A stretch of 64,000 nt of DNA from Candidatus Wolfebacteria bacterium GW2011_GWE2_44_13 (lineage in GTDB: Bacteria > Patescibacteriota > Minisyncoccia > UBA6257 > UBA9933): assembly GCA_001000675.1 (NCBI GenBank), contig LCHW01000003.1:3873-67872 (forward strand), given 5' to 3'. Shown here piece by piece: positions 7,326 to 62,296 of the stretch; the stretch's first letter is position 1; each line of letters starts with the position of its first letter. Under the pieces are notes generated by a model. It was not told the origin of the DNA, ran no database searches, and was given only the letters and a program-made list of their open reading frames with translations. The position numbers were made by a program, and so were the translations under genes.

Positions 7326-9077
7326 TTATTTGTTCTCTTCCGCCTGCTGCAACAACTGCTCTGGATCTGTTGTGATGATTCGATCTTCGAAATATGATGG
7401 GATTATTTTAATTGCAACATGCTTAAGCCCTACTAAAAATATTCCTTCTCCTACTCCCGCAGACAACACTAAGCTTTTTTCTGTTTCACTTAGCGCGAAT
7501 GTTTTTGCAAGCACTTCAATACTCGATGGAGCCTGCTTTAGTAATAATTGCAATGACGAGTTGGATACGATTGGCACTCCATAGGGAGAGTTCATGAAAT
7601 CGTCTACGTTCTGTGTAATCGTTGTCATGCCCAAATAGTATTTTCTGCATCGCTTCGCGAGACCAAACAAGAACGAGGCACTGTCGGGATGCTTCATCAA
7701 TACCCATGCTTCGTCAATAATAAGAATGCGCTTTTTCATTTCAGCGCGAATCAAATTCCATATATAGCTCAACATCATGTACATAGCGATTGGACGCAGC
7801 TCCTCTTCAAGATCGCGTGTCGAGAAAATAACAAGCCTATTTTTAATGTCTACATTCGTTTGTCTATTTGCAAATCCCGCATACGTCCCTTGCGTAAATT
7901 TGTATAGCTTTGCCGCCATACTCTTTCCTCCTTCCATGTTTTCTAACACAGTTTGCAAATCGCTCAATAAAGGCGCTTCCAGCCCGGTAAAATCTTTTAC
8001 ATCACTTGTAATACCTCGTGATGCATATGTTTCGTTGATTGCGCGATCCATGAGCGCGTCTTCTTCTGGCGTTAGTACTCCCATCATCAGCTTTAATAAA
8101 CCAACAACATTTAAAATGTGTGATCGAAAAACGTCTGCAGGATCTTCCCCTACCGGCACAACAGGAATGTCGAGTGGATTTATGGCTGTATCAGATGTTA
8201 GCGAAATTTTTAACAAACTTCCTCCAACCGCGTCTGAAAGTTTTTCATATTCATTCTCTGGATCGATAACAATCACGTCGATGCCCATCATTAATGAACG
8301 CAATATTTCCAACTTTGTTCCGTACGATTTTCCAGCTCCCGACTTTGCGAACACTACCTGGTTTGCATTTTCTAATGAAAAGCGATCGAAGATGATTAAC
8401 GAATTATTGTGCTGGTTGATGCCATAAAGCACACCCTTGTCTGATGTAAGATCTTCTGAAACAAACGGAAATAGTGACGATATTGGACTCGTGTTTAGCG
8501 CGGTATGAATTTGCAACTTGTCCTGTCCAATCGGTAGCGTTGAAATAAATCCTTCGATGTGCTGGAAAATAGATGGCTTTAAATATACCATCTGACTATC
8601 AAGGATCGACGTAATTCTATCTTCTGCGCGCGAGAGTTCCGCTACTGAATTTGCATATACGGTTATATACACGCCAACGTCAAAGAGCTTCTCTTCCGCC
8701 TGTTGTAGCTGGTCGCGAAGCGCTTCTATATCTTGATATGCGGTTTCCAATGCTGGGTCTCGTACAAGGCCTTTTTCATCGCGCTCTGAAAGCTGCGCCT
8801 CAACTTGCGATACCTTTCTTCGTAGCTTACTTAGCGCGGCCGTTGTTTCAACGGGATGCACAAAAATAGAAACGTCTAATAAATTCGGAAGATTGATAAT
8901 AACGTCAAACCATCCTGTGGAAAGATACCGTGGGTACGTAAAAATAAATAACGTTTTTACATAGGTATCTCCCAGTCGTATAAAATTAGGATTTGCTTCA
9001 AGCGCAGCCGGGGCAATGACGTTTTTTACATCTTCCCCTCCGCCTGTATATGCTTGTGGTACGGTTATTTTTTCCAT
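7326..9077 (-). CDS. VirB4/TrbE/CagE-family type IV secretion ATPase (ATPase domain)
   Basis: Walker A SGAGKSYG, DPENEY, Walker B ILIIDEAWVLM. The architecture is typical of VirB4. Confidence 0.75.
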   Translation of the reverse strand: MEKITVPQAYTGGGEDVKNVIAPAALEANPNFIRLGDTYVKTLFIFTYPRYLSTGWFDVIINLPNLLDVSIFVHPVETTAALSKLRRKVSQVEAQLSERDEKGLVRDPALETAYQDIEALRDQLQQAEEKLFDVGVYITVYANSVAELSRAEDRITSILDSQMVYLKPSIFQHIEGFISTLPIGQDKLQIHTALNTSPISSLFPFVSEDLTSDKGVLYGINQHNNSLIIFDRFSLENANQVVFAKSGAGKSYGTKLEILRSLMMGIDVIVIDPENEYEKLSDAVGGSLLKISLTSDTAINPLDIPVVPVGEDPADVFRSHILNVVGLLKLMMGVLTPEEDALMDRAINETYASRGITSDVKDFTGLEAPLLSDLQTVLENMEGGKSMAAKLYKFTQGTYAGFANRQTNVDIKNRLVIFSTRDLEEELRPIAMYMMLSYIWNLIRAEMKKRILIIDEAWVLMKHPDSASFLFGLAKRCRKYYLGMTTITQNVDDFMNSPYGVPIVSNSSLQLLLKQAPSSIEVLAKTFALSETEKSLVLSAGVGEGIFLVGLKHVAIKIIPSYFEDRIITTDPEQLLQQAEENK

Positions 9078-10415: not shown

Positions 10416-11714
10416 TTATTTCTTATCGTCTACTCGTTCTAAAATTCGTAAATCAATAACATCGCCACTTACCGGTATCTCAGCTAATCGTGGCTCTTTT
10501 TCTGCAGTGGCTTGCGCCGTCATTGAAGGTTCGCCTCGCTGCGGCGTTTTCATAACTTCTCCTAGTGGTATCTGTGGCGACACGACAGGCGCGACAGCTG
10601 GTTGCATAGGAGTAGTAACTGACTGTTGCATATCCTGTATACTATTGGCAGATTTTTGCTCAAAGTTTACCTCGTGTTCTTGCTTTGTTACGGGCGCAAA
10701 TGCCGTAGCTTGCCGTTGTTCCTGTGCTTGTTCTCTTGCGCTGCTTTGTAGTGTTTCTATCGGCCTTACTTCCTCTGTTTTTTGTTCAGATGCTGGTTGC
10801 TCGTCATGGGCCATTAAGTCAACCATCTTGGGCTCAAAATTAACCTCGTGTTCTTGCTTTGTTACGGGCGCAAATGCCGTAGCTTGCCGTTGTTCCTGTG
10901 CTTGCTGCCCAAAGATATCTTCGGTCGCCTTTGCGGCTGTATAATGCACAACGCGCGGTGCTTGCTGCTCGGTTCTTGCAACATCCCCTGCTTTGCGCTG
11001 GAGCCCTTCTGCCATACTTACTTGCGCCGTAATTGCAGCTCCTCCATTTTCTACTCCCTTTTCCTTTCCAAAGCCAAACATTCCTCCAAACGAACTAAAT
11101 GACCTCCCTTTTCGAGAAACCGTTTTTAGCTCTGTCTCCGAGTGAATCATTGTCGGCGCCGCAATCCCCTCTTCTTGTATTTGATCTTTAGGCGCTTCCG
11201 CTATCACAGCTGCAGACGCATCTTCACCGTCCTGTATTTTTATCTTTCGCACATCAAATTGCGTAGACTCTTTTGTTGTCATTACTGCAGGTTCACCCAG
11301 CTCTGCTGGTGTATATAATTCTCCGCTCGCTTTTGCACGCTCTCTAATTTCAACACTTGTTTCTTCGATAATCCGCGGACCACTTCCAGATACTGTTCTG
11401 TACAATTTTAATATATCCCCTCTAACCGGATCGAATATTCTATGATCAACTTGAAAAATAATCGCATCCGCGGCCTTCTTATCGATACCAGGAATTGACT
11501 GCAATTCTGCCGAAAAATCATTGATGTGCGTAAAGCCGAGCACGATATTCCCTACTACGTTTGCAACATTCTTTATGATGTCCTTGGGCAATCCAGCTTC
11601 TTCGCAGACATTCGAAATAGCCTCTCCGTTTTCGAATGAGAAAAAGGCTTCTCGCAAGCTCTCTGGCGTTGCTTCCCATCGGTCATAAATTTGTTCTTTC
11701 GTAATTATTTGCAT
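10416..11714 (-). CDS. Hypothetical protein with internal tandem repeat
   Basis: 432 aa. The 25-aa unit EQAQEQRQATAFAPVTKQEHEVNFE occurs twice. Confidence 0.45.
   Translation of the reverse strand: MQIITKEQIYDRWEATPESLREAFFSFENGEAISNVCEEAGLPKDIIKNVANVVGNIVLGFTHINDFSAELQSIPGIDKKAADAIIFQVDHRIFDPVRGDILKLYRTVSGSGPRIIEETSVEIRERAKASGELYTPAELGEPAVMTTKESTQFDVRKIKIQDGEDASAAVIAEAPKDQIQEEGIAAPTMIHSETELKTVSRKGRSFSSFGGMFGFGKEKGVENGGAAITAQVSMAEGLQRKAGDVARTEQQAPRVVHYTAAKATEDIFGQQAQEQRQATAFAPVTKQEHEVNFEPKMVDLMAHDEQPASEQKTEEVRPIETLQSSAREQAQEQRQATAFAPVTKQEHEVNFEQKSANSIQDMQQSVTTPMQPAVAPVVSPQIPLGEVMKTPQRGEPSMTAQATAEKEPRLAEIPVSGDVIDLRILERVDDKK
10663..10907 (-). repeat. Intragenic direct repeat (two copies of about 65 bp, identical)
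   Basis: aacctcgtgttcttgctttgttacgggcgcaaatgccgtagcttgccgttgttcctgtgcttg at about 10663 and about 10843. Confidence 0.8.
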
Positions 11715-36296: not shown

Positions 36297-36331
36297 ACTC
36301 TTCTAATGATGAAACACTCACCATTGAATGA

Positions 36332-36460
36332 GGTGCGAGACACTGGGGAATTGATGAGGAAGCTGTATTTAATAATACAGCGACCGAATCAATGGGGCCC
36401 CACCATGTAAAGTCCGCCCGAAGCGGACCACGTGGCAAGTAACGAAGCAGTTCGCAAAAC
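36332..36460 (-). ncRNA. Structured RNA-like repeat element, copy 1 (with a 38-nt insertion)
   Basis: Shares the gtgcgag..gggaat..gatgaggaagctgt..gcgaccgaat..ggggccc..gtaacgaagca..gcaaaa backbone with the copies at 40399 and 40911. Orientation is assumed from the surrounding operon. Confidence 0.45.
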
Positions 36461-36469
36461 CTATGCGTT

Positions 36470-37699
36470 TTATCTTGTTTTGAATGCTTCTTTTGGAGAA
36501 AGTGTCGTCGACCTATGCGCTGGCCAGAACCCTGCAATTAATCCAATCATAGAGGACAAGATGAGTGTCGTAATAACGAACCATATTGGGGTAATAAACA
36601 ATCGTATAGGGGCGCCTCCAAGGCGTTGCGCGAGAATGCTTAAAATAAAGTTTACCGTCTCTCCCGCCGCAATACCCAACGCAACACCCCCTAGCCCGCC
36701 TGATAATCCCATCAATAATGATTCCATGAGGAATAGGTTTTTAACATCACGGTCTGTAGCACCTAATGACTTCATAATACCCACCTCGTAAATACGTTCC
36801 AAAAATCCTACGATCATTGTGTTGAACATACCGATTGCCGATACGATAAGTGCAGCAATACCAAAAACACCAAGAATAGTTGTAATGATGTTCATAACCT
36901 TCTTTGCTTGGTTCACAAGGTCCACGCGAGCTGAAATAATAAACCCTTGTTCAATCAGCTCATCGCGCAATGATTCAACTGCATCAATGTTTGTTGCCTT
37001 TAACAACACTTCCTTGTAGAACGGTGGCTTTTGATCAACCGCAGAAGCAGACACAAAAGCAAACGGGGCTTGCGTATCATCGTTAATAATTCCAACGAGC
37101 TTGATTGGTTCTCTTAAAATTACCTCCTGTCCAGCTCCTTCTTGATCATTCAACCCTTGGTAGGTCAGCTTTAGCCCAAGCTCTTTCCCTATTGAGCTTT
37201 GATCGGGCACAAGGTTGAGCAGCTTTGCGGCTTGACTCGAAAGCACAATCCCCTTTTCATCTTCCTTAAATGCTTTCCCCGTGTCCGGCATAAGTCCAGA
37301 CAATCGAAAATAACTTGGGCTGATTATCTTTGCCACAACCAACCCAGTAGCTCCTTCGATTTTAATTTCTGCAGGAAACTCTGCCATCGTACTAACCTCG
37401 CCTACGTTTGGCATTTTAGTAATCGATTCGATTGTTGCCGGGTTAATATTCAATTCGCTCTCCGCTGGATAGCTTACCCCGAGCGCCATAAGAGAATCCT
37501 CTGTTGTTACCAATTTACCAATCAAAATAAATTGCAAACCATATCCCATAGAAATCAAAAACATAACCGTTCCGATGCCCACAGACATACCCATGATCGT
37601 CAAAAAAGTTCGAACTGGTTTCGTTTTAAATACTCGGAATGATAGCCGAAAAAGATCTGTTACCGATAAATGATTTCTTGTTTCTTCCATATGCTCCAA
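36470..37699 (-). CDS. ABC transporter permease (MacB/LolE-like, FtsX domain)
   Basis: 409 aa. N-terminal TM, periplasmic MacB-like domain, three C-terminal TMs. Confidence 0.75.
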   Translation of the reverse strand: MEHMEETRNHLSVTDLFRLSFRVFKTKPVRTFLTIMGMSVGIGTVMFLISMGYGLQFILIGKLVTTEDSLMALGVSYPAESELNINPATIESITKMPNVGEVSTMAEFPAEIKIEGATGLVVAKIISPSYFRLSGLMPDTGKAFKEDEKGIVLSSQAAKLLNLVPDQSSIGKELGLKLTYQGLNDQEGAGQEVILREPIKLVGIINDDTQAPFAFVSASAVDQKPPFYKEVLLKATNIDAVESLRDELIEQGFIISARVDLVNQAKKVMNIITTILGVFGIAALIVSAIGMFNTMIVGFLERIYEVGIMKSLGATDRDVKNLFLMESLLMGLSGGLGGVALGIAAGETVNFILSILAQRLGGAPIRLFITPIWFVITTLILSSMIGLIAGFWPAHRSTTLSPKEAFKTR

Positions 37700-40273: not shown

Positions 40274-40398
40274 CTAATGGCTAGTTAGCCCCACTTCCAG
40301 AAGTCGTCAAAAAGGTTCCAACATCGTCCCATAGCGCCGACTAAAAAACAACCCACGCAAGTGGGTTGTTTCTTGTATTAAATTAATATATTCAGATA

Positions 40399-40486
40399 AA
40401 GTGCGAGGCACGGGAATATCAATGAGGAAGCTGTGCAGAAGTACTGCGACCGAATTGATAGGGGCCCGTAACGATGCAATTTGCTG
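40399..40486 (-). ncRNA. Structured RNA-like repeat element, copy 2 (downstream of rplL)
   Basis: Conserved backbone with stem tatcaat/attgata (compensatory relative to copy 3). Confidence 0.45.
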
Positions 40487-40504
40487 AATATATTATATTT
40501 AAAT

Positions 40505-40870: not shown

Positions 40871-40910
40871 AAAAATAAATTAATTAATTATTCTACCCCT
40901 AAGATGCACA

Positions 40911-41000
40911 TATTTTAATGGAGTGCGAGGCATGGGAATATCGATGAGGAAGCTGTACAAGAAGTACTGCGCCGAATCGATAGGGGCCCATAACGAAGCA
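40911..41000 (-). ncRNA. Structured RNA-like repeat element, copy 3 (rplJ-rplL intergenic)
   Basis: Stem tatcgat/atcgata, inner hairpin gtac aagaa gtac, conserved ggggccc and gtaacgaagca. Confidence 0.45.
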
Positions 41001-41019
41001 ATCCGCAAAATATACAATC

Positions 41020-41520
41020 TTACTTCGAACCCATTTCTGCTTTTTGACTAAGTACATACATAAACATACGAATCGGTGCGGCAAGCATACCAACGACCTG
41101 TCCAATAAGAACTTCTCGTGATGGCAACTGACCAATCTGCTTCGTTGTTTTTGCATCCATGAATACCTTCCCTTCCATGTCATATGCTCCATAGATATCA
41201 CATCCTTTCTTTTCCTTCGATTTGAAGAATTTATAGACAGGGGCTGCAACATCGGAGATATTTGCTGAAGAAAAGATTGTTGCGAGCTGTGTTTCGAATT
41301 GTTCTGGGTTGATATCAACTCCTGCCTTTTCGAGAGACACGCGCAACAGCTTTTTGTTCACAACTCGTACGGTTGATCCGAGGGGACGCAAGGTCTTTTT
41401 CAATTCCTTGATATCTTCCACGCCAGTTCCAGAGAAGTTGATGAACATTAGATTCTTGCTATTCTTTAGCAATTCTTGCGTTTCCGCAATGATTACTTTC
41501 TTTTGATCTCTTGTTTTCAT
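41020..41520 (-). CDS. rplJ: 50S ribosomal protein L10
   Basis: 166 aa, L10 family. Confidence 0.9.
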   Translation of the reverse strand: MKTRDQKKVIIAETQELLKNSKNLMFINFSGTGVEDIKELKKTLRPLGSTVRVVNKKLLRVSLEKAGVDINPEQFETQLATIFSSANISDVAAPVYKFFKSKEKKGCDIYGAYDMEGKVFMDAKTTKQIGQLPSREVLIGQVVGMLAAPIRMFMYVLSQKAEMGSK

Positions 41521-41760
41521 TGTATTCTGCTTTTTGGTTTTTTAACTTCTCGACCTTTCATACCGTTTCTATATTCCTTCGGTTTTACTCAGGATAAATA
41601 AAAAACGGCATACCGCCGCAGAATCGTCCTAAATTAGGAGTTTCCTCGGTAGGGTTTACTCGGTTGAGGCCAGCCCATTTACAATGGGCTGGATCCTCGC
41701 TGTTGCAACCGATCGCTTCGCTTTCGGGCAACGCCGGGACCTACTGTCTACGGTATTGGC
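41521..41760 (-). ncRNA. Long structured 5' leader of rplJ (candidate L10 leader autoregulatory element)
   Basis: About 240-nt leader between a canonical promoter and the rplJ start, with several GC stems (gcccatttacaatgggc; ccggcgttgcccgaaagcgaagcgatcgg). Confidence 0.4.
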
Positions 41761-41763
41761 TCT

Positions 41764-41792
41764 ATAATAGTTTAATGCTGTTCTTTTGTCAA
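41764..41792 (-). promoter_or_regulatory. Canonical sigma70 promoter, TTGACA-17-TATTAT
   Basis: Minus strand ttgacaaaagaacagcattaaactattat. The -35 is at 41787-41792 and the -10 at 41764-41769. Confidence 0.65.
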
Positions 41793-41797
41793 CAAAA

Positions 41798-41819
41798 AAG
41801 GGCCTCTTGCGAGGCCCTT
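41798..41819. terminator. Rho-independent terminator
   Basis: aagggcctc ttgc gaggccctt with A/T runs on both sides. Confidence 0.65.
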
Positions 41820-41844
41820 TGGGAATATCTCCCGTGTTTCATAA

Positions 41845-42138
41845 TTACCAGAAGGAAATGATTCCCTCCACGATCGGCTGGATTTTTCCCCTAACCGCAA
41901 GTTGATCGGCATGAGAGATAGTCTCCACGTTTACCGATGTTGACTTCCCCTCCCGTTTATATTTCCCGACCTTATACCCCGGAACCACTGCGTAGGGATT
42001 CCTGCTCCCCCCAGGATGCGCCTGCATGAACACAACCGTTCTTCCATCATGGAGAATCTCTTGAAGCGATCCCCAATTCACGCTTATGTTTCCTTCGAGA
42101 CTTCTTCCGGTGGTGTGGCGCAATTTCCGATTCGCCAT
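41845..42138 (-). CDS. Hypothetical basic protein
   Basis: 97 aa. No confident family. Confidence 0.4.
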   Translation of the reverse strand: MANRKLRHTTGRSLEGNISVNWGSLQEILHDGRTVVFMQAHPGGSRNPYAVVPGYKVGKYKREGKSTSVNVETISHADQLAVRGKIQPIVEGIISFW

Positions 42139-42208
42139 GCGTCTCTCCTTCTTGTTATCGAATTTTTAGTGCTGATTATATTAAACACTATTTTTAATAT
42201 TTGTCAAC

Positions 42209-43190: not shown

Positions 43191-45110
43191 ATGAATCTAT
43201 CAAAATTCTTCGCTTCCGCACAATACGTTCTCCTCGCAATTATTCTTTCGGTTTCGTTTCTCTTGATGTATGATTCGTCACAAAAGGAGGCTGCGATTAT
43301 GGACGAGCTTGCGCATATTCCTGCGGGATATGGGTATGTAAGTGAACTTGATGCGCGTCTTAATCCAGAGCATCCGCCATTAGTCAAAATAGCGGCTGCG
43401 TTACCCCTATTATTCCTCGACCTTAACTTTCCTACCGATAGTACTGCATGGAAAGATGATGTAAACGGACAATGGGTCATGGGGTCGCAATTTCTCTATG
43501 AATCCGGCAATGATGCGGATAGAATTCTTGCAGTATCGCGCCTTGGACCAATAATACTCATGCTTCTTCTCTCTTTGCTCGTGTTCGTATGGTCACGCTC
43601 ATTGATGGGTTCTTGGTGGGCGCTTCTTCCAACCACGCTCACTGCGTTTTCTCCGTCCATGCTTGCCCATGGGCACTATGTCACCACCGATGTTGGCGCA
43701 TCACTTGGTTTTATTTTGGCGATCTACTTTTTCGGCAAGTTTATGCTGCACAATACGAAAAAGAATCTTGCCTATGCCGGTGTTGCCTATGGTATCGCAC
43801 AGCTTCTTAAGTTTTCTGCGGTGCTTCTTATTCCGCTTTTCCTTTTCCTTATCGCAATATTTGTGTTTGTAAAAGCGTTTAATCATCGCGTTTCCCTTCT
43901 CTCGAAGCTTGGCTATGTTGTTAACTATAGCTTCCGCTATCTTGGCTACCTTGCTGGTATTTTCGCTGTCGGTTATTTCCTTGTGTATTTGGTATATATC
44001 CCTATCACAATCAATTATCCGATGGAAAAACAGAAGTCGGATACTACCTATATCCTTTCTAACTTTGGTGGAGAAAATAACACTATCCCCGAGTGCACTA
44101 TCACTGCCCCAAAGGCACGCTGCTTAGCAGACCTTACGATTGCAATGACGACCAATACCATTGCACGTCCGTTTGCACAATACATGCTCGGCGTATTGAT
44201 GGTTACCCAGCGTGCTGCAGGAGGCGCTACCGGATACTTTATGAATGAGGTTTCTAATGCTGGCTGGTGGTACTACTTCCCTGTCGTCTTCTTCTATAAA
44301 GAGCCGCTTCCTTCTCTTATCCTTATTGGATTTGCATTGCTTCTCGGCATTGGGACGTTCCTCAAAAACTTCCGTGGGCCGTCACGTCTCAAAGAACGAT
44401 TCTTTACGTACGTCAATCTCAATTTTGCTGAGTTCTCTATGCTCTCGTTTATTGCCTTGTATTGGCTGTACAGCATGAGTAGCCCCCTTAATATCGGAGT
44501 TCGCCATGTGCTCCCGACAATTCCGCTAATGTATATTCTTACTGCGGGACGGATTAAGCAATGGACACGACAAGAGCTCGATCTTTCGTATGGATTACTA
44601 CGTAATATACTTACTGTTATTTGGAGCACGCTTAAGTCATCCTTTAAAACAGCGATTATCCTCTTCTTCGTACTCTGGTATATCGCTGAAGCGTTTCTTG
44701 CTGGCCCTTATTTCATCTCCTATTTTAATGAGCTCGCCGATGGCACTCCTAATGGATACCGCATTGTAACCGACTCTAACTATGACTGGGGGCAAGATCT
44801 TAAACGTCTCGCAGAGTTTACCGAACAAAATAATATCTCCAAGATTGCTGTCAATTACTTCGGCGGAGGAAGTCTCCCCTACTATTTTGGCGACAAGGCC
44901 GTTGCATGGAACTCTACAATGGGCAATCCAAAGCAAGAAGGTATTGAGTGGTTTGCTATATCTATTAACAATCTACAAAGCAGTATTGCCCCGATCGTTT
45001 CTGACTTGCATCGCAATCCTGAAGATGAGTACCCTTGGCTTCTCAAAGATAAGTCGCCCTATAGTCCAGATGCTCGAGCTGGAACGTCGATATTTATCTA
45101 TAAGTTGTGA
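43191..45110 (+). CDS. GT-C-family glycosyltransferase (ArnT/PMT-like, lipid-carrier dependent)
   Basis: 639 aa with more than 10 TM helices. The first periplasmic loop has a DE..AH-like motif (MDELAHIPAGYGY). Confidence 0.7.
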   Translation: MNLSKFFASAQYVLLAIILSVSFLLMYDSSQKEAAIMDELAHIPAGYGYVSELDARLNPEHPPLVKIAAALPLLFLDLNFPTDSTAWKDDVNGQWVMGSQFLYESGNDADRILAVSRLGPIILMLLLSLLVFVWSRSLMGSWWALLPTTLTAFSPSMLAHGHYVTTDVGASLGFILAIYFFGKFMLHNTKKNLAYAGVAYGIAQLLKFSAVLLIPLFLFLIAIFVFVKAFNHRVSLLSKLGYVVNYSFRYLGYLAGIFAVGYFLVYLVYIPITINYPMEKQKSDTTYILSNFGGENNTIPECTITAPKARCLADLTIAMTTNTIARPFAQYMLGVLMVTQRAAGGATGYFMNEVSNAGWWYYFPVVFFYKEPLPSLILIGFALLLGIGTFLKNFRGPSRLKERFFTYVNLNFAEFSMLSFIALYWLYSMSSPLNIGVRHVLPTIPLMYILTAGRIKQWTRQELDLSYGLLRNILTVIWSTLKSSFKTAIILFFVLWYIAEAFLAGPYFISYFNELADGTPNGYRIVTDSNYDWGQDLKRLAEFTEQNNISKIAVNYFGGGSLPYYFGDKAVAWNSTMGNPKQEGIEWFAISINNLQSSIAPIVSDLHRNPEDEYPWLLKDKSPYSPDARAGTSIFIYKL

Positions 45111-45114
45111 TACC

Positions 45115-45145
45115 AAACCCATGCGCCTTAGGCGCATGGGTTTTT
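45115..45145 (+). terminator. Rho-independent terminator
   Basis: aaacccatgcgcc ttag gcgcatgggttt followed by a T-run. Confidence 0.7.
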
Positions 45146-45213
45146 GTTTACATCCTTCCTATTATATGGTATTTAAAAAGTAGCACCATATCACGATTCA
45201 AAGGAGGCAATAT

Positions 45214-45573
45214 ATGCCGCAAGTTTTAATTTTAGACAGTACGGGCGGAGCACTTACCGCTCGCAACCTCAAGGATACCCTTGAGACAGCCCTTCACACT
45301 ATCGTCGCAAAGGAGCTCGGCACAAGCGACATTTTACTGGACCCGAGTAAAGTAGGGGTAGTGACAATCCCCTGTAGCATGAATTACTTCGAAGCCGGCC
45401 CCACGAGCCAAATCTGCATTATGGTTTTCGCGCATTGGTCTCAAGAGCGCGAGGACAACCTGGAGTCTGTTCGCGTGCCGCAAATTGCAGCGGGTGTTAG
45501 GGAAATTCTCCCCGAGGACATTTGCGGCGGCGTCTTCGTGCGTCTCGCTCCTGGCGGCTTCGCTAAATTTTAG
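45214..45573 (+). CDS. Hypothetical protein (Pro-1 start; tautomerase/MIF-like is a weak guess)
   Basis: 119 aa beginning MPQVLILDST. GC-rich codons. Strong SD (aaaggagg) 8 nt upstream. Confidence 0.4.
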   Translation: MPQVLILDSTGGALTARNLKDTLETALHTIVAKELGTSDILLDPSKVGVVTIPCSMNYFEAGPTSQICIMVFAHWSQEREDNLESVRVPQIAAGVREILPEDICGGVFVRLAPGGFAKF

Positions 45574-45591
45574 CCACAGTCAGCCACACCA

Positions 45592-45625
45592 AAACAGGCT
45601 CCTGAAAGGGAGCCTGTATTTTTTT
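45592..45625 (+). terminator. Rho-independent terminator (cassette 1)
   Basis: acaggctcc tgaaa gggagcctgt followed by ttttttt. Confidence 0.75.
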
Positions 45626-45698
45626 ACTTGCATAACTAATATCTTTATGGTATTAAGAAATCAGCACACTATCTTTCTAGAAAAAGGAGCTTATCCGT

Positions 45699-46109
45699 AT
45701 GAGTAAACCCCGCTGTATCACGTGGGATCTGGCAGCCACAAGAATCCTCGACGCACTCTCATCGCCCGAAGCAAACAAAGCAGTCGCCGATCTTACAGAA
45801 TTTCTTACTGGGACTGATGGGCGAAACGCCATTCATTGCCTCCTTAATTTTACGGGACGGCATATTGTCTTTGCCGAAGTAATAGAGGTTCATCCCGTCA
45901 TACCCCGCACTGTTTATGCTCTTACGAAAGTGGGGCTCGTAAAAACTGGCGCATCCTCAACGCTGCCAGGTGGCTTTCCTGAAACAATTCCCATTTCTGC
46001 TGCCGAGATAGTTGGAGCTACTATTCAGTTTGGGAATACAAAGCCCGAGCAAATCATGCCCTGGCTCCTCGCCGAGCTCGATACCATTGCCGCAGAAACG
46101 CTCCCATAA
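45699..46109 (+). CDS. Hypothetical protein
   Basis: 136 aa, GC-rich. SD (aaaggagc) upstream. Confidence 0.4.
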   Translation: MSKPRCITWDLAATRILDALSSPEANKAVADLTEFLTGTDGRNAIHCLLNFTGRHIVFAEVIEVHPVIPRTVYALTKVGLVKTGASSTLPGGFPETIPISAAEIVGATIQFGNTKPEQIMPWLLAELDTIAAETLP

Positions 46110-46124
46110 TCGCATCACGTAACA

Positions 46125-46157
46125 AAACAGGCTCCCGAAAGGGAGCCTGCATTTTTT
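46125..46157 (+). terminator. Rho-independent terminator (cassette 2; near-identical to cassette 1)
   Basis: acaggctcc cgaaa gggagcctgc followed by attttttat. Confidence 0.75.
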
Positions 46158-46165
46158 ATACTCTT

Positions 46166-47074
46166 TTACAATTTCAAATATTTCCTTACTGCAATATAGC
46201 TCGACAATACGCCAAGCCCAACGCCGAAGAATACTTGTGCGAACATAAATGAGAAAAAGTTCGAAAGATAATATGTCCAGCCATTAATATCCGGAACAAA
46301 TATACTTGCATACGGTGCGGTATAGAACACCGCAATCGTAACCACAATAATACTCATAATACTCCCTGTTATTCCGTATATTATTCCTTCCACCATGTAG
46401 GGCCCACGGATAAAGAAGTTTGATGCTCCTACAAGCCGCATAACTGCAAGCTCGTCTCGATTGGAATAAATTGCAAGTCGAATGGTATTAAAAATGATAA
46501 GTGCTGCAATAAGGCTGATAAACACAACGAGTAGTAGCCCGCCCTGCTCTACCGTACCCTTAATCTTCTTTAGCCGATCAATAACTCCAATATTCTGTGT
46601 ATATGATATTTTGTCGGTAATTTCCTTATACGTATCTTTTTCAAGATATCCTGCAATTGCTTCGTAATCTCTTAGCTCTCGTGCCTTAATGTTAAGCGAC
46701 GCAGCAAGTGGGTTTGAATCAATTGCTTCCAATGCTTGTGATACCGTGGAATCGTCTTTGTGCTGTTCTTTAAATTCTTCCAGAGCCTTGTCTCGCGAAA
46801 TATATTCCACTGACTTCACCTCGGGCAAGCTTTCAAGCGAACGCTGCACTTCTAACATACGATCTTCTGGAGCATCTACTTTAAAATAGACGCTGACGTC
46901 GATCTTATCCTGAATATCAGTTAAGACGATGTTTGCCAATGAATTAAACATTAACAAACCGCCGAGCCCAACCAACACAAGGAATACGATGGCAATTGTC
47001 GCAGTGGACAGCCAGCCGTTTCTCCAAAATCCAACGAGCCCATATTTTATAACACGTGATAGTGTGGTTAGCAT
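46166..47074 (-). CDS. ftsX: Cell division ABC transporter permease FtsX
   Basis: 302 aa. N-terminal TM, periplasmic domain, three C-terminal TMs. Adjacent to ftsE. Confidence 0.85.
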   Translation of the reverse strand: MLTTLSRVIKYGLVGFWRNGWLSTATIAIVFLVLVGLGGLLMFNSLANIVLTDIQDKIDVSVYFKVDAPEDRMLEVQRSLESLPEVKSVEYISRDKALEEFKEQHKDDSTVSQALEAIDSNPLAASLNIKARELRDYEAIAGYLEKDTYKEITDKISYTQNIGVIDRLKKIKGTVEQGGLLLVVFISLIAALIIFNTIRLAIYSNRDELAVMRLVGASNFFIRGPYMVEGIIYGITGSIMSIIVVTIAVFYTAPYASIFVPDINGWTYYLSNFFSFMFAQVFFGVGLGVLSSYIAVRKYLKL

Positions 47075-49049: not shown

Positions 49050-49122
49050 AGCCAGTGGCCGGAATTGAACCGGCGACCTACGCGTTACGAGTGCGTTGCT
49101 CTACCAACTGAGCTACACTGGC
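49050..49122 (-). tRNA. tRNA-Thr (anticodon CGT)
   Basis: Acceptor gccagtg/cactggc, anticodon loop ctcgtaa, T-loop ttcaatt. Confidence 0.85.
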
Positions 49123-49198
49123 GTGTTTCTTTATCTATTATAACGATTGGGCCTTCCTCTGCTCAGTATTCGCAAGCGCCCTATCGGGTGCAGTGCTC

Positions 49199-49315
49199 TC
49201 GTCGGAGCCGTTGTATATGAACGGCTCCGACATCACGGCACGTTGCACGCTCTTCGTCCGTCGGCTGACGAACGAATCCCTAGCAACGCCGAGTGTCCAA
49301 CTGAGCTACACTGGC
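49199..49315 (-). pseudogene. Truncated duplicate of the tRNA-Thr 5' end (49297-49315) plus perfect 12-bp hairpin (49199-49231)
   Basis: ccaactgagctacactggc repeats the 5' acceptor/D region of tRNA-Thr with no T-arm. The hairpin is gtcggagccgtt gtatatga aacggctccgac. Confidence 0.5.
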
Positions 49316-49492
49316 ATACAAAGGGCTCCCCCTCACAGGGAGCCATTCGAATCGCAAGATTTTTCCATGGCGCATATATTTGGCGAACTACTTCGTTGCC
49401 ATCTCCGTTTGTTTCCGCGAAGGAGATTTCTCCATCTTAGTCACAATCCTCGCTGGCGCCTCGTATTTCATCCAAATATATGTGTCATGACC

Positions 49493-61367: not shown

Positions 61368-61373
61368 AGTAAA

Positions 61374-61402
61374 AAATTGCCCCGCACTGCGGGGCTTTTT
61401 AT
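61374..61402. terminator. Bidirectional terminator
   Basis: aattgccccgc actg cggggcttttt. Confidence 0.7.
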
Positions 61403-61406
61403 ACCA

Positions 61407-61769
61407 TTACGGACGCTCCAGAATTTCTTTGGCAAGCGCTCTCAATGCTCGGTAGTCGAAGGGTTTTTTGATGACTGTCTCTGCAATCCCTCGTGCCACC
61501 ATCGGGATTTCATAGCCCGCAAATCCAGTCACCATCACAAAGGGCACCCGGCATCCCTTGTCATGCATCAAGATAACAAGTGCTCCACCGGACATCTCCC
61601 CTGGCAGTCCGTGGTCGACGATTGCAAGATCAAATGGCTCATCGGACAAGAGCTTGTACCCATTTTCTCCGTTGTCGGCAATGGTGATTGTTGCTCCCAG
61701 AGGCTCGAGACACCTAGCCAGCAATGCTTGCATGACGATACTATCTTCCACGATTAAAATCCGCTTCAT
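61407..61769 (-). CDS. Stand-alone response regulator receiver (CheY-like)
   Basis: ILIVEDS ... DLAIVDHGLPG receiver motifs, 120 aa, no output domain. Confidence 0.75.
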   Translation of the reverse strand: MKRILIVEDSIVMQALLARCLEPLGATITIADNGENGYKLLSDEPFDLAIVDHGLPGEMSGGALVILMHDKGCRVPFVMVTGFAGYEIPMVARGIAETVIKKPFDYRALRALAKEILERP

Positions 61770-61882
61770 GCTCTCCTCTCTTTCTTCCGACGCATAGCCA
61801 GAATACTCTGCTAAATTTCTTTATTTGCTATTTTCCTTATACAAGCCAACGACGCATGTGTCAACTGTTTTATATGGCTTTA

Positions 61883-61915
61883 AAAAAATTGCCCCGCACA
61901 TAGTGCGGGGCTTTC
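61883..61915 (-). terminator. Terminator (near-duplicate of the one at 61374)
   Basis: aattgccccgcaca tag tgcggggcttt. Confidence 0.65.
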
Positions 61916-61930
61916 TCACCCGAAATTGTT

Positions 61931-62296
61931 TTATGCGGCTGGTTCTGCCGCCCCCTCCACCAACCGATCGATGAGGTCGATGAGTGACTGGGTTTCGTAC
62001 GGCTTCGACAAGAAGCCGTCGATCCCAAGGGATACCTCTTCTGCCTCGGAAGTTGAGGACACCATCACAATAGGCGTCTGCAACCCTTGTTCGCGAAGCC
62101 GCCGCACCATTTCCCCTCCCTTCATCACGGGCATGTCATAGTCAGTGATGATGAGGTTGAAGCCACCCTGCATTGCAACAGCTTCCCCTTCCTGCCCATT
62201 TTCAGCAGTGACGGTCACGTACCCGAATTCCTCGAGTACGGACACCATTAATCCCCTGAGAAACATGTCGTCGTCGACATATAGAACCTTCTTCAT
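61931..62296 (-). CDS. Stand-alone response regulator receiver (CheY-like)
   Basis: VLYVDDD ... LIITDYDMPVMKG receiver motifs, 121 aa. Confidence 0.75.
   Translation of the reverse strand: MKKVLYVDDDMFLRGLMVSVLEEFGYVTVTAENGQEGEAVAMQGGFNLIITDYDMPVMKGGEMVRRLREQGLQTPIVMVSSTSEAEEVSLGIDGFLSKPYETQSLIDLIDRLVEGAAEPAA

Follow-up and report, generated by a model that had tools for sequence, protein, structure and literature searches.

In Candidatus Wolfebacteria bacterium GW2011_GWE2_44_13, a groundwater genome of the Parcubacteria within the candidate phyla radiation (CPR), two small genes, here called g1 and g2, lie side by side on the plus strand of contig LCHW01000003.1, between a membrane glycosyltransferase gene (PMT) and ftsX. 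They were analysed in a 64-kb stretch of this contig, referred to below as the window. The FtsX and FtsE sequences encoded in the window match exactly those listed under Candidatus Wolfebacteria bacterium GW2011_GWC2_39_22 and under ACD_81 from the Rifle aquifer. Both g1 and g2 are real genes under purifying selection. Each belongs to a protein family, the two families share a common chromosomal slot in related genomes, and the expression signals of the two genes are more alike than expected by chance. The reading that we consider probable, taken as a whole, is that g1 and g2 represent two families of small cytoplasmic proteins, unrelated to each other, confined to this lineage and quick to evolve, and that they are expressed as two independent single-gene transcription units. 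The near-identical terminators that follow them are most likely the scar of a local rearrangement, which would have copied the bidirectional g1/ftsX terminator within a variable slot. An earlier note on this DNA had described modular cassettes, with shared expression signals around unrelated proteins, that might be horizontally acquired or form a genus-specific mini-family. The self-contained units and the mini-families are retained here, each protein falling into a small lineage-restricted family of its own, but a reading of the units as mobile or foreign cassettes is not supported.

The two open reading frames (ORFs) were confirmed where the earlier note had placed them, at 45214–45573 for g1 (119 amino acids; ORF call, family alignment and selection analysis by dN/dS, the ratio of nonsynonymous to synonymous substitution rates) and at 45699–46109 for g2 (136 amino acids; ORF call and family alignment). 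Their GC-richness, reported from inspection, was borne out by windowed analysis: g1 has 53.6% GC and g2 50.6%, against 42.6% for the window; among sliding windows of equal length, they rank at the 99.7th and 98.7th percentiles. In codon usage, only g1 stands out. Its GC content at third codon positions (GC3) is 0.592, compared with a gene mean of 0.405 (standard deviation 0.07) among the 62 window ORFs of at least 90 codons. The GC3 of g2 is 0.453, and its GC surplus lies mostly at codon positions 1 and 2, reflecting amino-acid composition. The two proteins are unrelated to each other, as had been noted (BLASTP E 0.48; profile–profile probability 0.2%).

Neither protein has a match in Pfam or NCBIfam, and a word-indexed search of 5.8 billion proteins returned only the g1 and g2 queries themselves. 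An exhaustive phmmer search with the concatenated proteins against 1.8 billion cluster representatives retrieved 10 relatives of g2 (31–45% identity, ~140 amino acids) and three of g1, the latter family being enlarged to 10 members by profile search. These g1 proteins comprise 119–127 amino acids, together with one record called at 138 amino acids that has an internal Met-Pro start. The invariant residues of the family are M1, P2, L23, L27, A32, R79, L83, R87, L111 and G115, and its C-terminus reads RLAPxGFAEF. The g2 family has at least 11 members of ~140 amino acids, with conserved W9, A12, A28, G79 and P116, a HIVFG motif and a C-terminal helix, PExVMPWLxxELDKIA. A third orphan family of ~135 amino acids, g3, was found in the same slot of relatives. 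Searches of PHROGs, PADLOC and PDB, by sequence and profile, gave nothing for g1, g2 or g3. An AlphaFold2 single-sequence model of g2 was discarded as unusable, with a mean predicted local distance difference test score (pLDDT) of 46.5.

Pairs of g1 homologs gave dN/dS values of 0.19 and 0.24, indicating purifying selection on the protein. At the same time, g1 evolves rapidly, with a dN around 2–2.5 times that of neighbouring genes between loci L021 and L028, and 7–10 times between L017 and L022 (L numbers designate the loci compared). Variation among strains is uninformative on selection, given that the 1071-bp g1/g2 region is 100% identical across nine contigs of the same population, whose flanks differ by up to 0.4%. 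The stretch without single-nucleotide polymorphisms (SNPs) among these contigs extends from 44007 to 46192. A cluster of five SNPs follows at 46193–46226, in the last ftsX codons, starting 36 nt past the second terminator. Such clusters are also found elsewhere in the strain contigs, which suggests that they represent recombination tracts.

The chromosomal setting in relatives proved the most informative. The upstream anchor is the PMT_2 (GT-C type) glycosyltransferase gene, at 43191–45110 on the plus strand (639 amino acids; Pfam PF13231 at 1.6e-9, synteny and identities). The downstream anchor is ftsX, at 46166–47074 on the minus strand (library match and synteny), the 3' (downstream) end of a prfB-ftsE-ftsX run. 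The surroundings are conserved and syntenic in related Wolfebacteria, with rplJ-rplL, a 113-amino-acid gene and PMT, followed by ftsX-ftsE-prfB-serS-dnaX, but the gene content between PMT and ftsX varies by genome. With arrowheads giving orientation, the window reads PMT> g1> g2> <ftsX, whereas L017, the closed genome CP011209 and L029–L032 read PMT> <zn83 <g3 g1> <ftsX, and L022 reads PMT> <g3 g1> <ftsX. The slot contains PMT> g2> bPH_2> in L018 and g2> <g3 in L023, and all three families occur together in L049 (bPH_2> g2> <g3 g1> <ftsX). In L033–L037 it holds one gene of 169–189 amino acids and none of g1, g2 and g3. The three pairwise adjacencies of g1, g2 and g3 have all been seen, as well as the full trio.

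The flanking proteins are much closer to those of the window (FtsE 98%, PrfB 90%, FtsX 86–89% and PMT 73–78% identity) than the slot homologs of g1 (36–47%) and g2 (42–48%). The conserved flanks, the changing slot content and the low identity of its occupants indicate that g1, g2 and g3 form a recurring lineage-specific trio, reshuffled, lost and fast-evolving, rather than unrelated foreign cargo. More distant homologs occupy other settings. Those of g1 (L021 and L028) are surrounded by glycosyltransferase genes and immediately precede the gene for a 661-amino-acid polytopic membrane protein weakly matching DUF6541; no direct relationship was detected between this protein and PMT. Those of g2 (L024 and L025, from other Parcubacteria) lie in different gene contexts.

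The g1 homolog of CP011209 was not called in the genome annotation. It lies at 7738–8103 of L031, on the minus strand (locus coordinates), and is 99% identical to P0012. At its position, in this genome and in related assemblies, only an ORF of 30 or 55 amino acids has been annotated.

Each gene is equipped with its own initiation signals. The strong Shine–Dalgarno (SD) sites that had been noted are present, with AAAGGAGG at 45200–45207 for g1 (plus strand; -11.8 kcal/mol, the second strongest of 56 window genes) and AAAGGAG at 45683–45689 for g2 (plus strand; -8.1 kcal/mol). Sites of this strength, defined by an anti-SD duplex of -8 kcal/mol or lower, are found in just eight of the 56 genes, the median being -0.45 kcal/mol. 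Five of these eight are small GC-rich stand-alone genes, namely g1, g2, a 97-amino-acid ORF and two response regulators.

The predicted g1 promoter (45147–45186, plus strand) comprises a -35 element TTTACA (45147–45152), a 17-nt spacer ending in TGG (45167–45169), a -10 element TATTTA (45170–45175) and, after 6 nt, AGCAC (45182–45186). That of g2 (45628–45667, plus strand) has TTGCAT (45628–45633), a 17-nt spacer with TGG, TATTAA (45651–45656) and, after 6 nt, AGCAC (45663–45667). The earlier note had proposed a different box, TTTACN-17-TATRGT, which fits g2 but not g1, where TTTACA and TATGGT are 12 nt apart. The register common to both genes and to their homologs in six other genomes is instead a -35 element, 17 nt, TATTTA or TATTAA after TGG, 6 nt and AGCAC; in the form -35, 17 nt, TATTWA, 6 nt, AGYAC it is seen before the homologs of both genes in seven genomes. 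A simple sigma-70 consensus scan called neither promoter, because the -10 hexamers are non-canonical, matching TATAAT at just three to four of six positions and lacking the final T. Both promoters would be of the sigma-70 type with an extended -10 element (TGG-TATTWA), and transcription would start near AGCAC, leaving a leader of ~32–36 nt in each case.

The upstream regions of g1 and g2 share an ungapped block with 22 of 28 positions identical, TATGGTATT.A.AAA..AGCAC..TATC, which in both cases lies equally far from the terminator before it. This score is reached by ~0.1% of shuffles, and neither region matches any other of the 29 upstream sequences compared in the window as well. Overall, the two promoters are 62% identical. 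In the relatives, the g2 homologs of L018, L023, L024, L025 and L049 show -35, 17 nt, TG-TATTAA, 6 nt and AGYAC, and the g1 homologs of L017, L022 and L049 show TTGACA, 17 nt, TATTTT or TAGTTT, 6 nt and AGTACCAC.ATC, followed in both families by a strong SD. Between orthologs, upstream regions and coding nucleotides are conserved to the same degree, both at 57–71% identity, and the idea of a much stronger conservation upstream than in the coding sequence was therefore dropped. With upstream identity close to coding identity and a window value of 62%, the likeness between the g1 and g2 promoters is of the level expected of a shared conserved architecture, and no recent copying is required.

The near-identical terminators described earlier correspond to a 35-nt direct repeat, CAAAACAGGCTCC[T/C]GAAAGGGAGCCTG[T/C]ATTTTTT, with 33 of 35 positions identical between the copies. 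The first copy, T1, is predicted at 45590–45624 on the plus strand (hairpin at 45594–45617; repeat comparison and folding). The second, T2, at 46123–46157, is predicted to be bidirectional, being scored on both strands (hairpin at 46127–46150). The window holds these two copies and no others, and 100 shuffles produced none. T1 and T2 fold into 9–10 bp hairpins with GAAA loops, 6–7 GC pairs and a T-run of 6–7, with energies of -18.8 and -19.8 kcal/mol, and the hairpins begin 21 nt (T1) and 18 nt (T2) past the stop codons. A GC-rich stem-loop, followed by a T-run and placed just past a stop codon, is what would be expected of Rho-independent terminators. An additional intrinsic terminator is predicted for the PMT gene at 45115–45149 (plus strand; 13-bp stem and T-run, -23.1 kcal/mol), its T-run overlapping the start of the g1 -35 element. 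Together, these features support g1 and g2 as self-contained units, each with promoter, SD, ORF and terminator.

On the minus strand, too, T2 is scored as a terminator, and its A-tract would there serve as the U-run for the convergent ftsX transcript. T1 faces no convergent gene, yet it has kept the upstream A-tract found in bidirectional terminators. In L017, L022 and L049, the terminator of the g1 homolog lies beside the ftsX stop and reads CAAAAGGCTCC(loop)GGGAGCCTTTTT, the same type (CAAAAGGCTCC..GGGAGCC) as T1 and T2. The occurrence of this type beside ftsX in relatives points to T2 as its positional ortholog and to T1 as the copy. Common descent of T1 and T2 is favoured by their 33/35 identity, flanks included, and by the orthologous terminator in relatives.

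A history of the locus can be proposed on this basis. From the gene order in L049, L023, L017 and L022, the older arrangement would have been g2> <g3 g1> T <ftsX, where T is the bidirectional terminator. In this genome, g3 would have been lost and g2 placed between g1 and ftsX, the rearrangement duplicating T into T1 and T2 to give g1> T1 g2> T2 <ftsX. A duplication of T by local rearrangement would explain why the terminator is repeated, why T1 has a vestigial A-tract and why the gene order is altered. Two routes may be considered: the block may have been duplicated in tandem and then reduced by complementary deletions, or a promoter-g2 unit may have been re-inserted at the terminator. The resemblance of the promoters would result from a promoter and leader architecture kept by both families in all the genomes examined.

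A second case of adjacent genes with related terminators was observed in the window. Two genes for CheY-like single-domain response regulators, 31% identical, lie at 61407–61769 and 61931–62296 on the minus strand (region 61373–62296), with GC3 values of 0.55 and 0.66, and both are preceded by a TTGACA-type promoter and a strong SD. The terminators of the pair are homologous, AAAGCCCCGCA(CTAT)GTGCGGGGCAATTTTTT, differing by a symmetric 2+2-nt stem extension. This pair indicates that local copying or homogenisation of terminators recurs in the genome.

Several points weigh against the interpretation of two lineage-specific families with a locally copied terminator. Neither g1 nor g2 showed homology to a characterised family. 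The hairpin core CAGGCTCC.GAAAGGGAGCCTG is found once at each of 18 loci of unrelated bacteria in genome and metagenome collections, so part of the identity between T1 and T2 could be due to convergence. The -35 regions of the g1 and g2 promoters are dissimilar, a point against the entire junction having simply been duplicated. The GC3 of g1 (0.59), around 2.7 standard deviations over the window gene mean and similar to that of GC-richer relatives, is not explained by pure vertical inheritance. Finally, the search for further copies of the repeat covered 64 kb of the genome and the same locus in other strains; no third copy, and hence no further cassette sharing T1/T2, was found within the window.

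Three other explanations have to be weighed on these data. One is that the ORFs are chance open frames in a GC-rich spacer. It would account for the lack of annotated homologs, for the word-indexed searches that returned the queries alone, and for the g1 homolog left unannotated in CP011209. Nevertheless, it is refuted by the invariant residues and dN/dS of g1, and has against it the existence of two conserved families as well as the correctly spaced strong SD, promoter and terminator that accompany each homolog; we consider it extremely improbable. Convergence alone, in which terminators and promoters would have independently reached the same optimum (GC-rich stem, GNRA loop and T-run; strong promoter and SD) with no common history, has more to recommend it and is still rather improbable. 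The identical hairpin core is found in Lachnospiraceae, Oscillospiraceae, Sphaerochaeta, Nocardioides and others, and appears to be an easily reached terminator sequence; a third GGCTCCC..GGGAGCC hairpin exists in the window at 49324–49344; and other small stand-alone window genes also have a strong SD and a TTGACA-type promoter with AGCA where transcription would start. However, the T1/T2 identity extends to flanks beyond the stem and was not matched in any of the 100 shuffles, the terminator following the g1 homologs in relatives is of the same type, the A-tract of T1 has no evident use at its position, and the promoter match tops all of the 29 other upstream regions.

The remaining explanation is recent horizontal acquisition, in which one or both genes, as mobile cassettes coming from outside or from GC-richer Wolfebacteria, would have recombined at the terminator hairpins, with the 35-nt repeat as the insertion scar. 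It draws on the high GC of both genes and the high GC3 of g1, on a hypervariable slot, on direct repeats that bound a 533-bp unit, and on a region free of SNPs among strain contigs up to the cluster starting at 46193. The comparison with relatives, whose GC content is 47–53%, is also in its favour: in those genomes g1, g2 and g3 share the GC3 of their neighbours, while here the inherited PMT and ftsX have GC3 values 0.09–0.29 lower than in relatives and g1 does not (0.59 versus 0.57–0.65), although the inference of transfer from GC3 rests on the 119 codons of g1, a small sample. In the same comparison, g2 is only slightly high, and its normal GC3 is a point against acquisition. Viewed as a possible genomic island, the pair deviates in composition (GC in both genes, GC3 in g1), yet both families are present at the same locus in relatives. 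This occupation of the same PMT-ftsX slot in other Wolfebacteria, with orthologous promoters and an orthologous g1 terminator, speaks against mobile or foreign cassettes. In addition, no donor closer than 48% identity (47% for g1) is known, no integrase, transposase or attC-like site was detected within +/-6 kb, no g1 relatives appeared in a scan of viral contigs, and SNP-free stretches as long or longer are present elsewhere in the same strain contigs. Recent acquisition by mobile cassettes is, on balance, unlikely. The absence of an integrase or attC-like site, the genes' own promoters, the lack of viral relatives of g1 and the same-slot homologs leave an integron-like mechanism unsupported and make transfer from outside the lineage unlikely. 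A more limited event, in which an exchange at the slot brought g1 in fairly recently from a GC-richer Wolfebacteria, would fit the data and is plausible.

Regarding function, the earlier note had drawn attention to the N-terminal Met-Pro of g1 as a hint of the tautomerase/MIF superfamily. The Met-Pro start is indeed present, and invariant in 10 of 10 g1 homologs, but no sequence, profile or fold link to tautomerases was found. That g1 is a divergent member of this superfamily (4-OT/MIF), with Pro-1 as catalytic base, is a doubtful proposal with some elements to support it. The AlphaFold2 single-sequence model of g1 (pLDDT 69.5; predicted template modelling score, pTM, 0.62) shows the order beta-alpha-beta-beta-alpha-beta which, at ~120 amino acids, is that of fused two-unit members; Arg-79 and Arg-87 are invariant and Glu-78 nearly so, at the start of and within the second predicted helix. 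Glu-Arg 78–79 and Arg-87 recall the catalytic arginines of 4-OT, MSAD and cis-CaaD, and the non-significant hhalign matches cover topologically equivalent segments. On the other side, no member of the 10 matched Pfam Tautomerase, Tautomerase_2/3, MIF or CHMI at E<=10, the PDB profile search with the g1 family gave no tautomerase, and hhalign comparisons of the family with reference sequences of MIF/DDT and of 4-OT gave a probability of ~1%. Foldseek searches with the g1 model yielded no tautomerase in the top 50 PDB matches, only generic alpha/beta sandwiches (E>=0.03, template modelling score <=0.47), and no significant match in BFVD. Moreover, hhalign detected no internal repeat between the halves of g1, and the element order is also a common ferredoxin-like pattern.

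Our best guess, a tentative one, is that g1 is a small alpha+beta protein that would use its invariant N-terminal proline, possibly in a tautomerase-like manner, in a process tied to the envelope-glycosylation genes beside it, with g2 and g3 as possible partners. A more ambitious proposal, which we consider improbable, is that g1, g2 and g3 constitute an unrecognised fast-evolving module of Wolfebacteria/Parcubacteria, with g1 as a new, tautomerase-like branch of Pro-1 enzymes, acting with the adjacent GT-C envelope glycosyltransferase or in the interaction between episymbiont and host. It appeals to the adjacencies among the three families, to the complete trio, and to the distant g1 homologs located beside glycosyltransferase genes and the gene of a large polytopic membrane protein.

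Small genes without a known function abound in CPR bacteria and are mostly dismissed as noise. Here, g1 and g2 are demonstrably real and selected, and belong to definable families; the annotation of a closed Wolfebacteria genome lacks one of the two. The slot that the families have in common, beside envelope and cell-division genes, is a reshuffled one. They provide a candidate set for study: an invariant Pro-1 protein and two partner families, with strong stand-alone signals in a genome where SD sites are scarce. The locus is also a small worked example of how terminators may be copied locally as gene order changes. The original observation was real and statistically sound, and the finding is fairly ordinary and modest: two fast-evolving unannotated Wolfebacteria families, or three with g3, are documented, and no new kind of genetic element.

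Other features of the window were recorded. A third GC-rich orphan ORF (GC3 0.57; 97 amino acids) lies at 41845–42138 on the minus strand (region 41797–42200), with a TTGACA promoter and AGCAC where transcription probably begins, the strong SD AAGGAGA and its own terminator at 41797–41820; no counterpart was found in the related loci L017 and L022. A structured element of ~110–120 nt is present in three copies on the minus strand (36310–36430, 40380–40504 and 40902–41022), just 3' of the minus-strand genes rplJ, rplL and the gene at 36470–37699. RNAalifold predicts one long 37-pair hairpin, with 11 pairs retained through two-sided changes, and no match to Rfam reached the gathering threshold; it could be an undescribed repeated RNA or 3'-untranslated-region element. 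Upstream of rplJ, at 41591–41771 on the minus strand, a sub-threshold L10 leader (Rfam RF00557) scores 34.4 bits versus a gathering score of 44.

An unannotated GC-rich stretch at 49123–49492 on the minus strand separates serS from a tRNA gene and includes the GGCTCCC..GGGAGCC hairpin at 49324–49344 mentioned above. The first 19 nt of the tRNA at 49050–49122 (GCCAGTGTAGCTCAGTTGG) recur ~190 nt upstream, at ~49296–49314, and the stretch may be what is left of a disrupted tRNA or of an insertion targeted to a tRNA. The serS-tRNA gap of relatives is filled by a NUDIX gene or by an ORF of ~183–188 amino acids. Finally, a 73-nt direct repeat, 97% identical, is found at 10658–10730 and 10832–10904, with copies 174 nt apart, within the ORF at 10416–11714.

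Compared with known systems, the locus recalls integron gene cassettes in its compact ORF-plus-hairpin modules, arranged in one orientation with different cargo beside similar hairpins. An integron cassette consists of a promoterless ORF and an attC site of 57–141 nt, forming arrays beside intI/attI. In contrast, each of the g1 and g2 units has its own promoter and SD, the terminator hairpins are short and perfect (24 nt) with a T-run, homologs occupy the same chromosomal slot, and intI/attI are not nearby. With the tautomerase superfamily (4-OT, MIF, CHMI, MSAD and cis-CaaD), g1 shares the invariant N-terminal proline, a length of ~120 amino acids and two predicted beta-alpha-beta units, the second of which has conserved arginines, but neither significant sequence, profile or fold similarity nor an internal repeat.

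T2 resembles bidirectional Rho-independent terminators in its GC-rich stem, GAAA loop and A-tract and T-tract sides, and in its location between the convergent g2 and ftsX; T1 differs from them as a copy between same-strand genes, whose A-tract has no evident role. The tandem CheY-like pair is similar to g1 and g2 in that it comprises adjacent small GC-rich genes on the same strand, with strong SDs and mutually homologous terminators, whereas its members are paralogs (31% identity) and g1 and g2 are unrelated. Variable slots with lineage-specific orphan genes offer a further parallel. Although the slot described here is occupied by the recurring g1/g2/g3 trio and occasional others, not by unrelated imports, and carries no mobility genes, it shares with them the conserved flanks (PMT and ftsX-ftsE-prfB), the presence of different small genes in each relative, and occupants that diverge several-fold faster than the flanks.

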